Shown here: positions 1,949 through 63,176 of the stretch, piece after piece
Position numbering within the stretch: position 1 is the first letter of the stretch
How the letters are laid out: the number at the start of each line of letters is the position of its first letter
DNA from: Rhina ancylostomus
Lineage: Eukaryota
DNA: 64,000 bases
Assembly (NCBI GenBank): GCA_030265395.1
Contig: JARFYF010000065.1
Coordinates: 11,017,692-11,081,691 of the forward strand
Direction: 5' to 3'
The notes under the pieces: generated by a model
What the model was told of the DNA's origin: nothing
Seen by the model: only the letters and a program-made list of their open reading frames with translations
The model's database searches: none
Translations under genes and position numbers: made by a program

Positions 1949-2575
1949 CTAGCACCAGTCGTCCTCGTCGGTCTCACTGTAGGGTTCGTGCATCCCTTTC
2001 CTTGCGCCGGGCCCTCTCGTTTTCGTCGGCCCCAGGTTGTGGTAGTACCCGTTGGGTACCCGGCGCCCGTGCCTCGGGAGGGACACGGAGGAGGACGGTA
2101 CCCGACAAGTCCTCGGCGACCTCCCGGAACTCGTCGCCATGGCCACCTCGAAGGTCAGAGTCTCCTCCCTCGGCACGCCGTCGTAGTCGGGGCTGCGGTA
2201 ATAGTCATCGTCGTGGCACCCCAGGTAAGGCTCGGAGAGGTGGGAGCTGGGGGTGGACCACTGGCCGCTGCTCTGGCGATGCAGTCGGGGGGAGCCGTTA
2301 CGCGGGACGGTGCCTCTCTCCGTGCCAGGGGACCTGCTGCTGCTGTGCCTCTCGCCCCTTTGGTGCTCCGGGGGCGGGGGTGAGTACCGGCGTGGCACGG
2401 GGGTCGGTGTCCTGCCCTGCTNNNNNNNNNNGTTCATGGCCTTGCGGACCACGGGGGAGTAGGTGACATGCGGCCTGGGCGTGGAGGGAGTCTGGGGGAG
2501 TTGCCTGCGTCCCCTCCTCGGTGTGCTGGTACCAGAAGTGGAAGGAACTGGACTCCCACTCACAGAACTACTGCC
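1949..2575 (-). CDS. CACNA1A: CACNA1A terminal exon (exon 47, long isoform using the upstream GGCAG acceptor)
   Basis: Translates [45 protein letters not shown]...[10 protein letters not shown]...[17 protein letters not shown], matching the Cav2.1 C-terminus (RRQLPQTP motif, DDWC PDZ ligand). Acceptor AG at 2577-2576, stop TAG at 1951-1949. A 10-N gap lies at 2422-2431. Confidence 0.96.
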
Positions 2576-2577
2576 CT
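2568..2577 (-). promoter_or_regulatory. Tandem 3' splice sites of exon 47 (AG|GGCAG|TAG)
   Basis: The minus strand reads tctAG GGCAG TAG ttctgtg. The downstream AG places a stop codon as the first codon of the exon. Confidence 0.9.
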
Positions 2578-3289
2578 AGATGAAAATCGAAACAAAGCAA
2601 ATCAAAAATAAAAAATCAGGAGCAAAAACACAGACAGGAAAACCATCGGAGAAAGCAAAGAGGTAACAAAAGGAACAAAAAGAAGGAAGCAACGACCACA
2701 ACAAAAAAAGTCAAAAGAAAGTAAAAAGAGAAATTGACGTTTGTAAGTCAAGGGGTTGAGAAAGAGCAGGCATTGTGCTTTAGATAACATGGGTTTAAAA
2801 GCGCATCGCAAGGCCGTACACATTAAACAGCTTGGAGACTATGCTTGTAACTGAACAGGAGATGCCAGCACTACTGGAAGAATGAAGCCTAAACTGAAAA
2901 TGTCGGGTCTCCAGAGCCCCGTTAACCGAAAGAAAAGGTGGATTAATGTTAGCCCAGGCTAGGAAAATATATGGTGGGAAATTCGCCTGTGTTAAATGCT
3001 TGCTGTAGCTGCGGCCGCGTGTTGTATCCCATTCCAAAAATTTGGTTATATTCAGTTCGATGGAATTGGTGTAAAATGTGCAGCCAATACATGCTAACGA
3101 CCAAGAACGAATTTCCACACTGACTTCCTGCTCTCTCTGGAACTGCATGTGTATTATACCCATACCAGAGGGTGGCTACTGTGTACTCTAATCATGATGT
3201 ATCCACATTCCCCTGAAAAGTTAACTGATTGCCCTCTTGAATGTTGTGGGGGAAAAATTTGCAATTCTGTAATGCCTTTCTTGTCGATG

Positions 3290-18019: not shown

Positions 18020-18212
18020 CTGTGTCAGCATCCGTGTATCGGCTTAATGACCTGTCTGATGTTTTTTGTCCCCTCTCCCTGCGGCGATGGGTCCTTTGTG
18101 ACTCCTCAGGGATGACCCGCTCCAGCGAGTAGTCGTCCAGCCGTATGCCCTTGGAGCGCTGATGGCCTAGTGTGGATGCCGATCTCTTAATTGGGCTTGT
18201 GTCTTCGATGGT
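18020..18212 (-). CDS. CACNA1A: CACNA1A exon 45
   Basis: cag|ACC ATC GAA...GAC ACA G|gtaagc; 193 nt; [65 protein letters not shown]. Confidence 0.96.
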
Positions 18213-22890: not shown

Positions 22891-25075
22891 CCATTTACTT
22901 TAGATTTTGAGACTGAATACAACAATGGGGTCAATATTCACCATGATCATATATCAATCAGGGAGTGGCTGGGTGGGGTGGGAATTGTGAACGAAATGTT
23001 CACTTGGTGACACTGTCAGGAAAGGGATTTTTAATTTCAGTTGTTGAGTTGCCAACTGCTTCTTAGTATGCTCTGCAGTTAGTTGCACTAGGCATGTGAC
23101 AAACTCCTTGGGCCATTGAGAACAGGTTAATTCATGTGGGCTAGTGGAAGGAGGTGTTAGTGATGATACAGAATGGTTAATTGCAATCTGCAGGCACAGC
23201 AATTGTTCGTATTTGCAAAAACCTTTTTTTCCCCTCAAATTCATTCCCGATGATGCCTCCAAGGATCAACCATTCTGGTTGTTCTTCACTTTGATCACTG
23301 GAGACTTCCCAGAACTTTGCAGCCACTATAATGGAATTAAAATAGCACTGGGGGGCCCTAAGACATTCCAGTTTACAGAGAATAATATATTTGCTGCCTG
23401 TGACCGGCACAGGAATATTATCTAAATCAGTGCTCTTTATAAGAGCAATGGTCAGGATGTTTTCTTTTTATTTTTGTCCAATCCTCCTGCCCAATTCTTG
23501 AAGTGAAAAATGGTGCAAATGAAGAGATTGAAATCAGGCCTTAATGAAAAATATGCCATTGGTGTGGTGCCTCTTTCAAGTGGCAATTGAAGCCAATTCA
23601 TTTGTTAATGTTAAATCTGGATCACAGATGTTAACCAATGTAATTGGGGATGTGAGGTGGGGGATAGGTCACAGATCCCCCATGTTGTGGTTGGGTAATC
23701 ATTCAACAGACTGAATGGTTTGTTCTATTTATATTTTCCCACCTGAGCAAACTTAACTCTGTTCGGTAGAATGAAGGAGATGACATTCACGGATTTCCCA
23801 CCCTAATTGAGACTGGGCAGAGGGTGTAGTGATGGTTGTGCTTGAACCCACTCCCCCACCCCCTGCTCTGTCCATAGCGCTACTCACAGGAGCTCCAGTA
23901 TCTCTGCCTTGTTGACGTCACTGGTTTTACAGTAGTTCTGATCCAATCAGATTCTCCATTAGTTTTAACTACTATTCAACAGAGAACTTGCTGACATTCT
24001 TGCTGTTCCTTCACGATAATGGAAAATATTTATAGACTAAGGACTGCACCCTTCATCTCAATCAAGATGAAACACTCAGATATCAGTCTGTTATTAACAT
24101 AGAAATCGAATTTTGTTTCTCCTCTTCAGACATGGCAAGGGTTTTCCCTTAAATCAAAACTATTCTTCAGACAGTTAATGATCACAATGCATGCTTACTC
24201 GTGCTGAGTTTTCAATACAGAATCATTCCAGGAACATGCAATTGTTCAGCCTCTGTGTGGGTGCAAGACCCTTGCCATGCACGCTATTGGAAGGGCACGT
24301 TCAGTTGTTATCAGTATAGGGCTTTAAAACATTTTACAACAGATCCCCCAATAGTTCAGTGGAAAAGAATTTTGGCTGGCATGGTGACTGTGGCCAAGAT
24401 GGAATCGGGTGCCAACATTTGGTCCATGCTGTGCTATCTCAATCAGCAAGACCAGGGCCACAATCACAGCCTGAGGCACACATCCAGGGGGTAGATATAG
24501 TCTTGTCTGCCTTCCTTTCAAATCTTGAGGCAGAAATGGTGATGGAGCCTGAGGCTTCATTGGAGGAGCATCACTGGAGGAGTGCTTGGCAGATCAACTG
24601 AGGTGAGATATACCTGGGCAATCACTGGCCCCCACAAAGATGTCAGACACATTGGACAAAAATTAGAGATGATCAAGAGGGGATCAATTGACTCTTTTGC
24701 TAAGCAGATTTCCTGTCACAGATAGAGTTTAAAATAATTATATGCACCATTTATATTTAAACATAACTTTGGGAAATAGAGCTCTTTAAAGATAATTAAA
24801 GGGCCATTCTCTTCATGAAGAAAATATTTAGTAGTCTTTTTGTTCTTGGGGGAAGAATTATAATTGTTGCATAACTTTAGTTATAATCATATCAACTGTT
24901 AGATGTTTGCAGACAATTATTTGGGAAAAACAAGTGATTATTTTCCCCCTCCCACCAGACATTTGTCCCTTCAACAAATGAACATGCCCAGTAAATGCCA
25001 CAATTGACAAAATGAAGCCTTGAGACAGACAAGAGTAATCGAAACACAAAAGAGAGACTGAGACAGGGTACATAC

Positions 25076-25111
25076 ACTGAGGTTATTCCCACGGTTCCGC
25101 ACTTTTCTCCT
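25076..25111 (-). CDS. CACNA1A: CACNA1A exon 44 (36-nt cassette exon)
   Basis: ttagcag|AGG AGA AAA GTG CGG AAC CGT GGG AAT AAC CTC AGT|gtatgt = RRKVRNRGNNLS (human recalled as RRRGRPRGNNLS). Phase 0/0. Confidence 0.92.
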
Positions 25112-28100
25112 CTGCTAACAGCCACACAAGAGAGTGCATATTGAGAAGGGGAGGAAGTAAAAACACAAGACAGGAGAGAAGGCAGCGACAGGACAGACGT
25201 GACAGAAAATGGTCGCAGGAGGACCCCCACATCGAAAAGGCACCAACGAGGATGTCCAGGGTGTGGAAAGAAGGGCACAGATAAGGACACAGTTGGTTTT
25301 ATTATTAAGTAAACAAAACAACCAAAAACAGGTGGAAGGAAAAAGCAAACATCCAACAGTTATACAATAAGCAGATAGAAAGAGCACAATAGAACACACC
25401 AGACGGTTTCATAGTTGTCAAAGAAAGTGGATTGACCAGACCAACAGAATTTCTTTAAGATGGAAGAGTGGCTTTTTTGGGGAGGGTGCAATTCCAGGAT
25501 TTAGATCTATGGGATCATTTAAGTCCACCTGAGGGAGCAGATAGGGGAGGTGGAGGGAGCTAGAGAAAATCAATATTATTTGAGTTCCAGTCCCACATTT
25601 TTTACATCACTTCACCAGGCTGATCAAACAGTCTAGCACACATTTTCCCCCTCAATCCTTTCCTGCCCCCCACTAAAAATTTCTTTAGTTTTCTTTTGTC
25701 ACTCTGACTAGACGTTNNNNNNNNNNNNNNNNNNNNNNNNNNNNNNNNNNNNNNNNNNNNNNNNNNNNNNNNNNNNNNNNNNNNNNNNNNNNNNNNNNNN
25801 NNNNNNNNNNNNNNNNNNNNNNNNNNNNNNNNNNNNNNNNNNNNNNNNNNNNNNNNNNNNNNNNNNNNNNNNNNNNNNNNNNNNNNNNNNNNNNNNNNNN
25901 NNNNNNNNNNNNNNNNNNNNNNNNNNNNNNNNNNNNNNNNNNNNNNNNNNNNNNNNNNNNNNNNNNNNNNNNNNNNNNNNNNNNNNNNNNNNNNNNNNNN
26001 NNNNNNNNNNNNNNNNNNNNNNNNNNNNNNNNNNNNNNNNNNNNNNNNNNNNNNNNNNNNNNNNNNNNNNNNNNNNNNNNNNNNNNNNNNNNNNNNNNNN
26101 NNNNNNNNNNNNNNNNNNNNNNNNNNNNNNNNNNNNNNNNNNNNNNNNNNNNNNNNNNNNNNNNNNNNNNNNNNNNNNNNNNNNNNNNAGTAGGCAGTCT
26201 GTTCCACTTGGGCAGTTGGAGCTATACTCACAGAGGTTCAGGGCAGGATCAGTTTTTAGAGGTGATATTAGAAAATAGTGTGAGAACGAGAAATTGAAAA
26301 CATGTCAGTCTGTGAGAGAAAAAGAAAAGGCTTTTGGTTGAATGTCCATTTTGGACTTTTCCTGATGCCAGTCTTCAATGGCATCATTCCATTTTCAGTG
26401 GACTAGGCTTGGGTTAAATTCAAGGTTTTAGATAACATTACATAATGTACAGAACAGATTGGAGGCAGGGCAGCAAACTCTCAGTGTAAAAACATTTCCC
26501 TTTTTCACCTGGAGACTGCAGATGCTGGAAATCTGGAGCAACACATAAGTGCTGGAGGAACTTAGCTGATCAGGCAGCATCTATGGAGGGAAAAAGACGG
26601 TTGGCATTTCGGGTTGAGCATCTTGATATAGGGTCTCGACCCGAAATGTAGACTGTCCATTTCCCTTCATAGAAGCTGCCTGACCCACTGAGTTCCTCCG
26701 GCATTTTGTGTGTTGCTCTCTTTCACATCCTTCTTTTGGAATTTCAGTCAGAGACAAATTATGTACCAGATAAGTGTGGATTATGAGCACAGTCATTGCC
26801 TGTAACTATTATAGAGAAGACTTGTATTGAATTCATGGGTTGATTCATTATATTGGACAAGATGTTAAACTAAAGCCCTGCTTAGTGAGTACTGGCAATC
26901 TCATGGTGCTATTTCAAAAAAGAGTAAGAGAATTCAATATTGATCCTTCAGTGGACATCATCAAGCAACTAACTTGGTATTCATGTAGCTGCTTGTGGGA
27001 TCTTGCAGTGCAAAACTTGCCATATTACTTACATTACAGCAGTTTATACACTTCAAAAATACTTCATTGGCTATAAAGCTTTCTTTCTTAACAGGCTTCA
27101 GAGAAAAAGGCATTTCTGAACAGGCATCCCTGAACAATATGATAACCCTGAATGATAATTCTTCTCTACTCATGAGTTGTTGGGGGTAACTGTAGTAGTT
27201 CCCCATTTGCTTAAGAGCAAAACTAGAACAGTGGTTAATTTGTGCATTCCCGTTCTTAGTGACAGGGTAGATGTTTTTTGTCCAAGTCAAAATTCCAATG
27301 TCGTCTGTCAATGTCTCGGTGTGTAGACATTGCAGAAGATCTGCTCTGCAAATATTTCCTTCCAAATGAAGTAATGTTTTATCTGACAGATTAAGACCAC
27401 TGTCATTTTCCCACTGTGTGTGGGAAATCCATTGTAAAAGGAAGGTTCTTCCTGCGAGTTGTGGAGGTCATGGGTTTGGGAGGGATATTGAAGAAGGAAG
27501 TTATCTCTAACATTCTCCAGCTCCACCAGCTATCAAACAGCCTTTCCCCACACAAATGCCCAACACTTTATCCCACAGCTGGTGGTTGTGATTAAGCTGC
27601 CTAATCTATGGACACTGGCTCTCTCTCTCTGGCTCTCTCTCCCCAACTCTCCTCTGTAAAGCCAACCCTCTTCACCAACATCTTGCTCACCTCCCAGATA
27701 TCGTTATTCTTTCTTGTATCAGTCTGCACTGCAGGGAGCTTGGATGGGAATATTCTACAACAACACAAATTAAACTAACATTCTCTTTATTAATGAAGGT
27801 AATTGATTTGATAAGAACATGGGGAGGTAATAAAGCTTATCCAGCCAATCCTAGATTTAATATGAACAATTGATCCCGGCAGCAATTGCATCGTGGAAGA
27901 GAGTTCCAAATTTCTCCCGTACACTGAGACATTGACAGAGGACTTCGGAGTTTTGTGTGGAGAAGCCTCTCCGAACTTCATTCCTGACATTAGACTCTGC
28001 GTCTAGTCCCGAATTCTCAAACCTATGGTAATAACTTAACCTAGCCTATGATTTTCTCACATTATCTCGAAAACTTCAATCAAGGAATTACTAAATTTCA

Positions 28101-34477: not shown

Positions 34478-34591
34478 TTGGTTCCCTGCTGGTAGTCGTG
34501 GCATGGAGGATGCTCGACTTTGGCCATCCATCGGGAGATAATGGTCGCTGTCCGAGTAGGCGTCCCTCCCCATTTCTTGCATCTCCACAGC
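34478..34591 (-). CDS. CACNA1A: CACNA1A exon 43
   Basis: ttgcag|GCT GTG GAG ATG...AAC CAA|gtgagc; 114 nt; [38 protein letters not shown]. Confidence 0.96.
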
Positions 34592-51385: not shown

Positions 51386-51630
51386 CCCCTCTCAGTTTAC
51401 ACTGAGGTTTGTAACCAACGCAAAATCCATGAGGTAATGGCGTTTAAATTGGCCGCCGCCCTCTCTGGAATGGCGTTTGAACCGCTAACTGTGCTGCCGG
51501 GTCCAGGCCGTCTGCTCTCCCAGCCCCACCCTGAGCGGTCCCAACGCGAGTGGGGCGGGACACGGCGTGTGGCCGGTGCTGTACACACCGGGCTCCTGTA
51601 CTGTGGTGTGTGAGGTCGAGCAGGGCTCAC

Positions 51631-51802
51631 CTGAACGCTGTTCCCCAGGGTGCGGATGTAGTCGGCCTCTGTGAGTCTGCAGACGTGCAGCTTGTTAGGT
51701 TTCTCCATGTTCTTCACCCACTTGTTGGCCTGACCCTGCGGGTCGATCATGAGCGGCCAGCGATGGGCAGAGGTCACGATGATGGCGTTGTCCACCGAGA
51801 AC
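51631..51802 (-). CDS. Axonemal dynein heavy chain exon C (start of AAA5)
   Basis: ctctcag|G TTC TCG GTG...GTT CAG|gtgagc; 172 nt; FSVDNAIIVTSAHRWPLMIDPQGQANKWVKNMEKPNKLHVCRLTEADYIRTLGNSVQ, carrying the RWPLMIDPQGQANKW AAA5 signature. Confidence 0.92.
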
Positions 51803-51884
51803 CTGAGAGGAGAGTAACAGTGTGTGAGGGCACCCGTTCCCGGGAACAGCAGCGTCTCGTCGGAGCGTCGGGAAGAACACTTAC

Positions 51885-52018
51885 GTGTCCCGTGGCAGTC
51901 CATGCAGCTGCCACTCCATGATGCTGACGGGGTCTCCCAGGGTGCTGGACAGGGAGAAGGCACTGGAGACCGGGATTAGCTTCTGCTTGCACATGGACAG
52001 CCATTCCTTCAGTGCGTT
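51885..52018 (-). CDS. Axonemal dynein heavy chain exon B
   Basis: ggcag|AAC GCA CTG...GAC AC|gtaagt; 134 nt; NALKEWLSMCKQKLIPVSSAFSLSSTLGDPVSIMEWQLHGLPRDT. In phase with exons A and C. Confidence 0.9.
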
Positions 52019-52116
52019 CTGCCAGAGAGGGAGCAGACGAAACAGCAGGTGAAACACTGCGGGCTGGGGCTCCGACACTGACAGCGGCTGGAGGTGGCAC
52101 GGGCACACCAGAGGGA

Positions 52117-52700
52117 CAGAGCACAGAAGAGCACAGAGAGCACAGAACACAGAAAGCACATAGACCACAGAGAGCACAGAGCACAGAGACCACAGAGCAC
52201 AGAGAGCACAGAGCACAGAGAGCACAGAGCACATAGACCACAGAACGCAGAGAGCACAGAACGCAGAGAGCACAGAACGCAGAGAGCACAGAGTACACAG
52301 AGAGCACAGAGTACACAGAACACATAGACCACAGAACACAGAGAGCACAGAGCACAGAAAGCACAGAGCACACAGAACACATAGACCACAGAAAACAGAG
52401 AGCACAGAGAACACAGAACACATAGACCACAGAGCACAGAGCACATAGACCACAGATCAGAGAGAGCACAGAGCACAGAGTACACTGAACATAGAGAGCA
52501 CAGAACACAGAGAGCACAGAACACAGAGAGCACAGAACACACAGAACATATAGACCACAGAGCACATAGACCACAGTGCCAGAGCACATAGAGCACAGAG
52601 CACACAGCACAGAGCGTACAGCACATAGAGTACACGGAGCACAGAACACAGAACAGAGAGCACAGAGCACACAGAGCACAGAGCATAGAACAACACAGCA
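52117..52700. repeat. Degenerate (AGAGCAC)n-type tandem repeat in the dynein intron
   Basis: Repeated agagcac / agaacac / atagaccac units; the source of the spurious Cys/Val/Leu-rich ORFs. Confidence 0.95.
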
Positions 52701-52985
52701 CAGGAAGAGGCCCTTCAGCCCACCATGTCCACACTGACCCTGATCCCAATTCAATCCCATCCCCCTGCAGGGCCCACATCCCTCCATTCCCTGGTGTCTG
52801 TGGGACCCGTGCCCCACACCGCTGGGTCACACCCAAACCCCGTGCCACCACTGACGGCCTCCATGTAACCACACGCAGAAGGGGAGGGAATATCCCGCAG
52901 CCGCTGCTGTCTGAGGAACCCGGAGGTTGCCCGTCCTGTTACCGGATGTCCGTGCAATGGGGCAGCGACTGGCAGGGCGCCTCAC

Positions 52986-53157
52986 CTGCCGGTAGTCGGG
53001 GGTGAAGGGCCCGAGGTAGGCCACCATGCCGGTGCTCAGCAGCGTGTCGCCGACCATGTTCTGGTAAGAGTTCTGCAGCTGCTTCACGATGCTGGTCCAC
53101 CGCCCCCTCTCCCCTCCCAGCCCGGCCAACAGCTCCTCCGCACGGTCCAGCTTCACC
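52986..53157 (-). CDS. Axonemal dynein heavy chain exon A (stalk CC2 region; DNAH3/7/12-like), nested in CACNA1A intron 39
   Basis: ttgcag|G GTG AAG CTG...CGG CAG|gtgagg; 172 nt; VKLDRAEELLAGLGGERGRWTSIVKQLQNSYQNMVGDTLLSTGMVAYLGPFTPDYRQ, with the dynein GLGGExxRW and YLGPF motifs. Confidence 0.9.
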
Positions 53158-53184
53158 CTGCAACCGACACGCAGCGTTAGGGAG

Positions 53185-53287
53185 GGAGAGGACCCCAGCC
53201 CGGGGGGAGAGGACCCCAGCCCGGGGGGGAGAGGACCCCAGCCCGGGGGGGAGAGGACCCCAGCCCGGGGGGGGAGAGGACCCCAGC
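53185..53287. repeat. GC-rich minisatellite (about 22-24 bp unit gaggaccccagcccggggggga) running into a 100-N gap
   Basis: At least 4 copies with a variable G-run, directly visible. Confidence 0.95.
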
Positions 53288-62712: not shown

Positions 62713-63176
62713 CTGTGCAGCAGAAATGAGGAAATAAAGAAGATGCATCCGTGACGAACGTAAAGGATAAAAAAACGGAAGGAAACAAACAAAAAAAAAA
62801 CAAAAAAAAATTACAAGGTTATTCTTTACGGGTCTGTCAATCACAGAAATTCACCCACTTCCTATGCAATGTCTAACTATTGCATAGACGCACAGAAAGA
62901 TAAATCTTTGATGAGAAGCCTGTTGTGAGGAGATGCAGTCTTTGTCAATGCAGTTTCTGTCCCCACAGCACTAATGAACACTACTAAACCCAAGATGCCA
63001 AGTGGTTTTGGTTCAAACAAGCAGCAATGGCTGAGGCTGAGGTAAGTATGTGCATTTTCCATGCTGGATTTGTCTAGCTGACTGCATTTTCCTGTACATT
63101 CTACTCCGAGAAATGCAAAACAAGAAGGAAGCACACTCATTCATTGATGCCGAGGTTGGTAGCTTAGTGGAAATCA

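Follow-up and report, generated by a model that had tools for sequence, protein, structure and literature searches.

The locus and exon 44

The window analysed here is a stretch of 64,000 nucleotides from the ray Rhina ancylostomus (GenBank assembly GCA_030265395.1, contig JARFYF010000065.1, positions 11,017,692 to 11,081,691), and the 3' part of CACNA1A lies on its minus strand, with exons 37a to 47 in order. The gene and exon identities given in the original prediction, which had been made from the bare sequence, are supported by this exon order, by the match of exon 45 to human Cav2.1 (8x90_A, E 3e-17), which is far better than its match to Cav2.2, and by the conserved peptide of exon 44. 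This exon is a simple cassette that follows a 9.4-kb intron 43; it joins in frame with exons 43 and 45, has a donor beginning GTATGT, and, as a 36-nt in-frame exon between these two that encodes an RR..R.RG.NLS peptide, is the orthologue of CACNA1A exon 44 (Table 1). The residues PAGNQ that precede its peptide are also found in ray proteins.

Table 1. Features of the CACNA1A locus, in window coordinates; positions with a minus sign are distances upstream of exon 44
Feature	Position	Strand	Remark
Exon 37b (mutually exclusive), AG-free zone of 109 nt before it	62715..62823	-	comparison
Exon 43, upstream exon, 114 nt	34478..34591	-	AG-free zone 55 nt
AG-free zone, 3' end of intron 43	25117..25452	-	computed
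Farther candidate branch point TTGAC, A at -307	25417..25421	-	highest motif score in the zone (5.19)
Preferred candidate branch cluster, A at 25310, 25305, 25302 and 25293 (-199 to -182)	25284..25313	-	predicted only
Proximal core of the zone	25117..25288	-	strongly conserved in related fishes
Proximal candidate branch points TTTAC (A at -47) and CTCAA (A at -31)	25141..25161	-	pass the branch score
Tandem acceptor TAG-CAG (NAGNAG)	25112..25117	-	use of TAG adds one Gln
Exon 44, 36 nt, RRKVRNRGNNLS, frame-preserving	25076..25111	-	identical peptide in 7 shark/ray models
Exon 44 donor, GTATGTACC	25067..25075	-	same in the bony-fish-like orthologue L002
Exon 45, downstream exon, 193 nt	18020..18212	-	AG-free zone 25 nt
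Exon 47, AG-free zone of 200 nt before it	2578..2777	-	comparison

Gene models, as distinct from reads, differ in whether they include exon 44. Among the 22 shark and ray models listed, from a cluster of 33 members, the exon is present in five, present with an extra Gln in two and absent from 13, and two could not be parsed. Across 156 proteins, gathered with a query that itself lacks the exon, 46 models include it, 81 lack it, six differ and 23 were unparsed. Models with and without the additional Gln coexist in one stork and one cormorant annotation as well as among sharks and rays, in agreement with what the tandem acceptor predicts.

Exon 44 of chick (RRKVRPRGNNLS) is known from clones that contain it and clones that lack it, and vesicle capture falls to about 62-66% when it is lost (PMC5958201). 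It is skipped in chick and mammals and carries part of the synaptic-vesicle-binding site (PMC5958201), and a review terms it an AT-hook (PMC4329791). The ray exon is the orthologous 12-residue cassette, differing in that it reads RNRG where chick has RPRG. The available text of these two papers treats the protein encoded by exon 44 and leaves its intron undescribed.

Elsewhere in the window, intron 39 contains two pieces of dynein heavy chain (52830-53285 and 51400-51975; Pfam MT, E 2e-6, and AAA_9, E 2e-18), both on the minus strand, as is the gene, and separated by a repetitive stretch. They may derive from the capture or duplication of part of a gene, or from an error of assembly.

An AG-free zone upstream of exon 44

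A dinucleotide scan bore out the starting observation of the original prediction, that CT is absent from the plus strand over the 336 nt of 25117..25452, with the flanking CTs at 25115-25116 and 25453-25454, and the pre-mRNA of intron 43 is therefore free of AG over the same interval. The zone measures 336 nt up to the TAG of the tandem acceptor, or 339 nt up to the CAG by the rule of Gooding, and AG occurs at normal frequency upstream of it, the next being at -343, -362 and -397. The mean spacing of CT across the window is 15.6 nt, within the 10-20 nt that had been estimated for AG, and CT gaps longer than the zone are found in the window at an N run and in a repetitive stretch of 395 nt (52090-52484). 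Read on the minus strand, the zone consists of 43% U, 26% C, 18% G and 14% A. It had been described as unique, CpG-bearing and no simple repeat, and indeed it matches its own genome once, at itself, in a search that skips common words, holds six CpG, and contains no tandem repeat that we could find. Rfam has no match for it, and folding revealed no long-range structure that would bring a far site near the acceptor (z +0.48 against shuffles); a structured RNA was accordingly rejected. A small hairpin that would leave the -199 and -194 sites unpaired was likewise set aside, as it reaches a z of only -1.4 and has no counterpart in L002.

The judgement that chance is a very unlikely source of such a zone holds, with one caveat. 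Only 12 of 200,000 composition-preserving shuffles of the zone were free of AG (mean 8.2 AG per shuffle), and when an exponential tail is fitted over 234 kb of the gene, the expected number of such runs is 0.0006, but the true tail must be heavier than this fit, because CACNA1A has two other sense-strand runs of at least 336 nt. These are the repetitive stretch at 52090-52484 and a C/T-rich tract of 351 nt outside the window, and neither reaches any mapped acceptor. Their existence is an argument for regarding the zone as a by-product of A-poor, pyrimidine-rich sequence that has no role of its own, and the scarcity of GA as well as AG in the corresponding zone of L002, together with a GT microsatellite there, points the same way. 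Against this, the zone before exon 44 is non-repetitive, ends exactly at an acceptor, recurs in L002 and stands out from its own shuffles, and the 234 kb contain seven AG-free runs of at least 200 nt on the sense strand against none on the antisense strand. An explanation by composition alone is thus largely refuted, and we consider it very improbable.

Rank among the acceptors of the gene

The original prediction had proposed comparing AG-free lengths across the gene, and we did so for 39 acceptors, placed by hand from tblastn matches across the window and the adjoining 200 kb upstream. This set omits an exon preceded by N and several others that we could not locate. The zones have a median length of 34 nt, and the longest are those of exon 44 (339 nt), exon 47 (200 nt) and exon 37b (109 nt), followed by one of 93 nt. 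That the top three should all fall within the alternative set of 37a, 37b, 43, 44 and 47 has a chance of 0.001, for a set picked with the result already known and in which exon 43 is presumed to be alternative. The suggestion that regulated exons of this gene share a common architecture is therefore partly upheld, in that the longest zones precede exons 44, 47 and 37b, but exons 37a and 43 have zones of just 58 and 55 nt; for exon 45, the estimate of about 25 nt proved exact. The rank of exon 44 among these acceptors, with the zone of 516 nt found before the same exon in L002, leads us to conclude that the zone is under selection and is not a product of chance.

Several other features of these acceptors were recorded. 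Exon 47 (window 2570-2777, minus strand) has a second AG five bases inside the exon, as TAG followed by GGCAG, a layout that we take to be that of the mammalian switch between long and short tails. In a paralogous Cav2 gene (L024, contig C56) the zones of the 37a- and 37b-type exons are 58 and 136 nt, compared with 58 and 109 nt in the gene of the window, and another paralogous exon in the same genome has a zone of 66 nt. The 351-nt C/T-rich tract (G000:C65:11227469-11227819, minus strand) ends about 230 nt before an acceptor, with several AGs between, and makes a useful negative control. Two further minus-strand runs, of 166 nt (G000:C65:11132598-11132763) and 182 nt (11188825-11189006), end, as judged by eye, in good-looking acceptors with no mapped exon; the first has a GTAAGT about 56 nt past the acceptor and could precede an unannotated frame-shifting exon. 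Intron 31, outside the window (L005:7484-7717, minus strand), contains a 234-nt AG-free run followed by TAG, ACCACG and GT, with six YCAY words in its last 120 nt against a background of 2.3. The ACCACG would add Thr-Thr in frame ahead of a weak donor, at the place where mammalian CACNA1A has the 6-nt NP micro-exon 31a (PMC4317164), and no Thr-Thr insert is seen in the shark and ray models that were parsed at this position.

Variation in related fishes

Of seven sequencing runs compared, three from related fishes (X11, X20 and X21) cover the zone, the last with a single contig of depth 4.4 in which errors are possible; X16 and X22 yielded short chance-like matches and X2 and X15 none, an outcome to which we attach no weight. 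X11 differs from the window at 3 of 259 nt and X20 at 1 of 156. In X21, the 167 nt that comprise the exon and its flanks (about 96 nt on the upstream side and 35 nt on the downstream side) hold 3 differences, compared with 61, plus 25 gaps, over 471 nt of the downstream intron (p 7e-6), and farther upstream in the zone there are 11 in 192 nt plus 10 gaps (p 0.006), so that constraint weakens with distance from the exon.

Two AGs occur inside the zone in X21, a GAG at -178 and a TAG at about -289, the latter read by eye at the loose end of the contig. As the zone is interrupted at these places, the full 336 nt are probably not all needed, and the constrained part is probably some 180-200 nt. 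Within the proximal core no listed difference creates an AG, three of the differences of X21 lying outside the listing. Among the 11 listed substitutions in two related fishes, one makes an AG (the GAG at -178), which is close to the 10.5% or so expected of random changes, and this sample taken by itself therefore gives no sign of AG avoidance. The GAG lies 4 nt behind the A at -182 and 16 nt behind the A at -194.

A long AG-free zone in a bony-fish-like orthologue

A degenerate pattern of the exon gave one match in metagenome contigs and none in prokaryote genomes or viral contigs. The matching contig, L002, encodes RRRHRPRGNNLS, which is identical to carp at 11 of 12 residues and is followed by the same donor as in the window; from this we infer that the contig, which carries this one exon, is teleost host DNA. 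Introns that carry AGs throughout had been named in the original prediction as evidence against it; in L002, the one full orthologous intron end compared, 516 nt directly upstream of the exon are free of AG, the next-longest gap on the contig being 91 nt. None of 200,000 shuffles of the L002 zone was AG-free. GA is also rare in it (3 against 10.9 expected), and it contains the GT microsatellite mentioned above. The acceptor of L002 is a single CAG, in place of the tandem TAGCAG of the ray.

The zones of the window and of L002 show no overall alignment, and a gapped local alignment of the two returned low-complexity matches only. The best ungapped match, weighted for composition, is an element of 16 nt (window 25299-25284, L002:1095-1110) with 14 of 16 positions identical, a score reached in 18 of 1,500 shuffles (p about 0.01) for an element that had been spotted by eye before the test; unweighted tests at fixed lengths of 17, 20 and 24 nt fell short of significance (481, 290 and 585 of 600 shuffles). 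In L002 the element contains a canonical ACTAAC at -403, which is the best branch candidate there and is followed by a tract of 83% pyrimidine. In the window it reads ACCAAC (-182), directly after TTTAC (-199) and TTAAT (-194), and the U that L002 carries two bases ahead of the A is missing from its CCAAC. The GAG of X21 occupies one of the two positions at which the elements differ. With sequences that barely align and yet are both free of AG over hundreds of bases, the AG-free state before exon 44 looks ancient; the feature is real and selected, and probably of long standing.

Where exon 44 may branch

Candidate branch points were ranked with a score and cut-off that are our own approximation of the branch consensus. 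The three candidates of the original prediction, TTGAC, TTAAT and TTTAC, lie where it had placed them, with the A at 25418, 25305 and 25310. The long selected zone and its counterpart in L002 favour its further claim of a distant branch point; the AGs of X21 argue against TTGAC at -307 as that point. We propose instead that exon 44 branches some 180-200 bases upstream, at the cluster around the shared element, and that AGs between there and the acceptor have been removed by selection, an explanation to which we would give an even chance on the sequence comparisons available. U2 would pair with the A cluster at -199 to -182, and U2AF would bind the pyrimidine tract that follows it. The second step would then scan down to the tandem acceptor and take the first good AG it met, with TAG and CAG competing to give forms with or without one Gln, and any AG arising between the branch point and the acceptor would be selected out for the reason that it would be used. 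So long a gap may weaken or delay recognition of exon 44 and give room to proteins that bind U/C- and UG-rich RNA, and in this way the exon would stay optional. The 140-150 AG-free bases farther upstream are, on this proposal, probably less constrained.

The choice of -199 to -182 over -307 rests on the TAG of X21 at about -289 and on the 16-nt element with its branch consensus. The GAG just behind -182 and -194 could be passed over by the scan, while a TAG 18 nt behind -307 would capture it; a GAG is tolerated inside such a zone in sunfish OGDH (PMC7969005). The whole 336 nt could nonetheless be functional in this lineage with TTGAC as the branch point, alone or among several, after the manner of PTB exon 11 and GABBR1 exon 23. 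TTGAC has the best motif score and lies towards the 5' end of the zone, as such sites usually do according to Gooding (PMC1431707), and the zone of L002 likewise extends 115 nt past its best site, with a second candidate at -460. The tract behind TTGAC is, on the other side, weak (57% pyrimidine), the part of the zone around it is more diverged, with many gaps, and the TAG of X21, if the single shallow contig read by eye is correct, lies about 18 nt downstream of it. Branching at -307 therefore seems to us unlikely.

A more serious possibility, though one that we still find doubtful, is that the branch point is proximal, at -31 or -47, like that of most introns and of micro-exons of the SRRM3/4 type, and that the U/C- and UG-rich stretch serves as a platform for regulators from which AGs have been purged as competitors of a weak acceptor. 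Both proximal sites pass the score, conservation peaks in the nearest 100 nt or so, and the two AGs of X21 follow A-rich or weak tracts and would be poor acceptors; alternative micro-exons are reported to have more than 75 nt of conserved flank (PMC4317164). This proposal is harder to reconcile with L002, which has no branch candidate above the cut-off in the last 180 nt before its exon (there is a weak TCAT at -25), and zones of 336 and 516 nt are far longer than the flanks such exons need. Nor is the place of UGC kept. The original prediction had noted a UGC close to the acceptor; one is present, but the nearest lies 27 nt upstream of the exon, whose acceptor is moreover a tandem, and in L002 UGC stands at -14 and -10. 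U/C words, UG words and seven YGCY words are present in the zone, and the RBFOX site TGCATG occurs neither in the two zones nor in the scanned parts of the downstream flanks. As any U/C-rich stretch holds such motifs, the PTBP, CELF and SRRM4 proteins that had been named as regulators are motif-based guesses.

Published experience with long AG-free zones bears on the distal branch cluster that we prefer from both sides. Conservation of a long zone without alignable sequence has been taken as a sign of a real distant branch point (Gooding, PMC1431707), skipping is more frequent, at 43% against 28.6%, for exons whose branch point lies more than 100 nt away (PMC2991248), and distal branch sites are often conserved to zebrafish (PMC5378181). 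Against it, an estimated one-fifth to one-half at most of zones of at least 100 nt mark a distant branch point (Gooding, PMC1431707), and distal sites contribute only modestly where a normal site also exists (Taggart et al., PMC5378181). We suggest, tentatively, that branching hundreds of bases upstream of exon 44 may predate the separation of cartilaginous and bony fishes, the element having been kept while the spacer went from about 180 to 400 bases; we hold this to be possible rather than probable.

Comparison with known systems

A zone of at least 150 nt precedes 165 of 67,334 human exons (Gooding 2006, PMC1431707), and among the members of this distant-branch-point class are PTB exon 11, with a zone of 381 nt and its branch point at -351, nPTB (438 nt), GABBR1 exon 23 (288 nt) and Fugu PTB (590 nt) (PMC1431707). 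The zone of exon 44 is a candidate addition to this class, large but inside the known size range, with a branch point that is predicted. Like the exons of Gooding, exon 44 is a short exon, alternative in chick and mammals, with an AG-free stretch running to its acceptor, AG at normal frequency upstream and a long zone maintained without alignment. The long zone is conserved in L002 (516 nt) and interrupted in X21, and a branch consensus is clear in L002, whereas the window has several moderate ones (-307, -199 to -182, -47 and -31). Exon 44 differs in that its best-supported site is predicted to lie in the middle of the zone and not at the 5' end, with a weak consensus in the ray, and in that it preserves the frame and provides no NMD switch.

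Exon 37b of the Cav2 genes and OGDH exon 4b (PMC7969005) belong to the same gene family or the same class and are conserved in fishes; human CACNA1B appears in supplementary file 2 of Gooding with a zone of 182 nt (PMC1431707), and we identified it as 37b-type by its exon sequence. These are mutually exclusive exons with short introns, in contrast to exon 44, a simple cassette preceded by an intron of 9.4 kb, and steric exclusion of a neighbouring exon therefore cannot explain its zone. The neural micro-exons controlled by SRRM3/4 (bioRxiv 10.1101/2024.09.17.613571) resemble exon 44 in being short, frame-preserving and neural, with a weak acceptor context and with a tract and branch signals that lie at some distance from the AG. 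They differ in that the AG-free stretch of exon 44 extends over hundreds of bases and the place of UGC varies, although UGC is neither required nor specific for SRRM3/4 micro-exons (bioRxiv 10.1101/2024.09.17.613571). The available parts of PMC4317164, PMC7235277 and that preprint make no link between SRRM3/4 and exon 44. CACNA1A was not found in the supplements of Gooding (file 1 in part) or in part of those of Taggart et al., and one paper, in its available part, names the gene among those with mutually exclusive exons and partitioned tracts. In a search limited to open papers and a minority of branch-point tables, we found neither an AG-free zone nor a branch point described for exon 44 of CACNA1A.

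Implications for CACNA1A

Splicing of exon 44 is known to switch the tail of the main presynaptic calcium channel, and the recognition of this exon is undescribed in the papers that we found. Distant branch points have long been known as a mechanism, and what is gained here is specific to the gene: a zone common to a ray and a teleost-like fish offers a concrete candidate place for the branch point of exon 44, and predicts that new AGs deep in intron 43 would disturb splicing. If this is true and the arrangement has been kept in humans, the end of intron 43 would be a hidden target for deep-intronic variants that create an AG, of relevance to the ataxia and migraine associated with CACNA1A. 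The same region would also, if the proposal is correct, provide an antisense handle on exon 44, which helps to tether synaptic vesicles.
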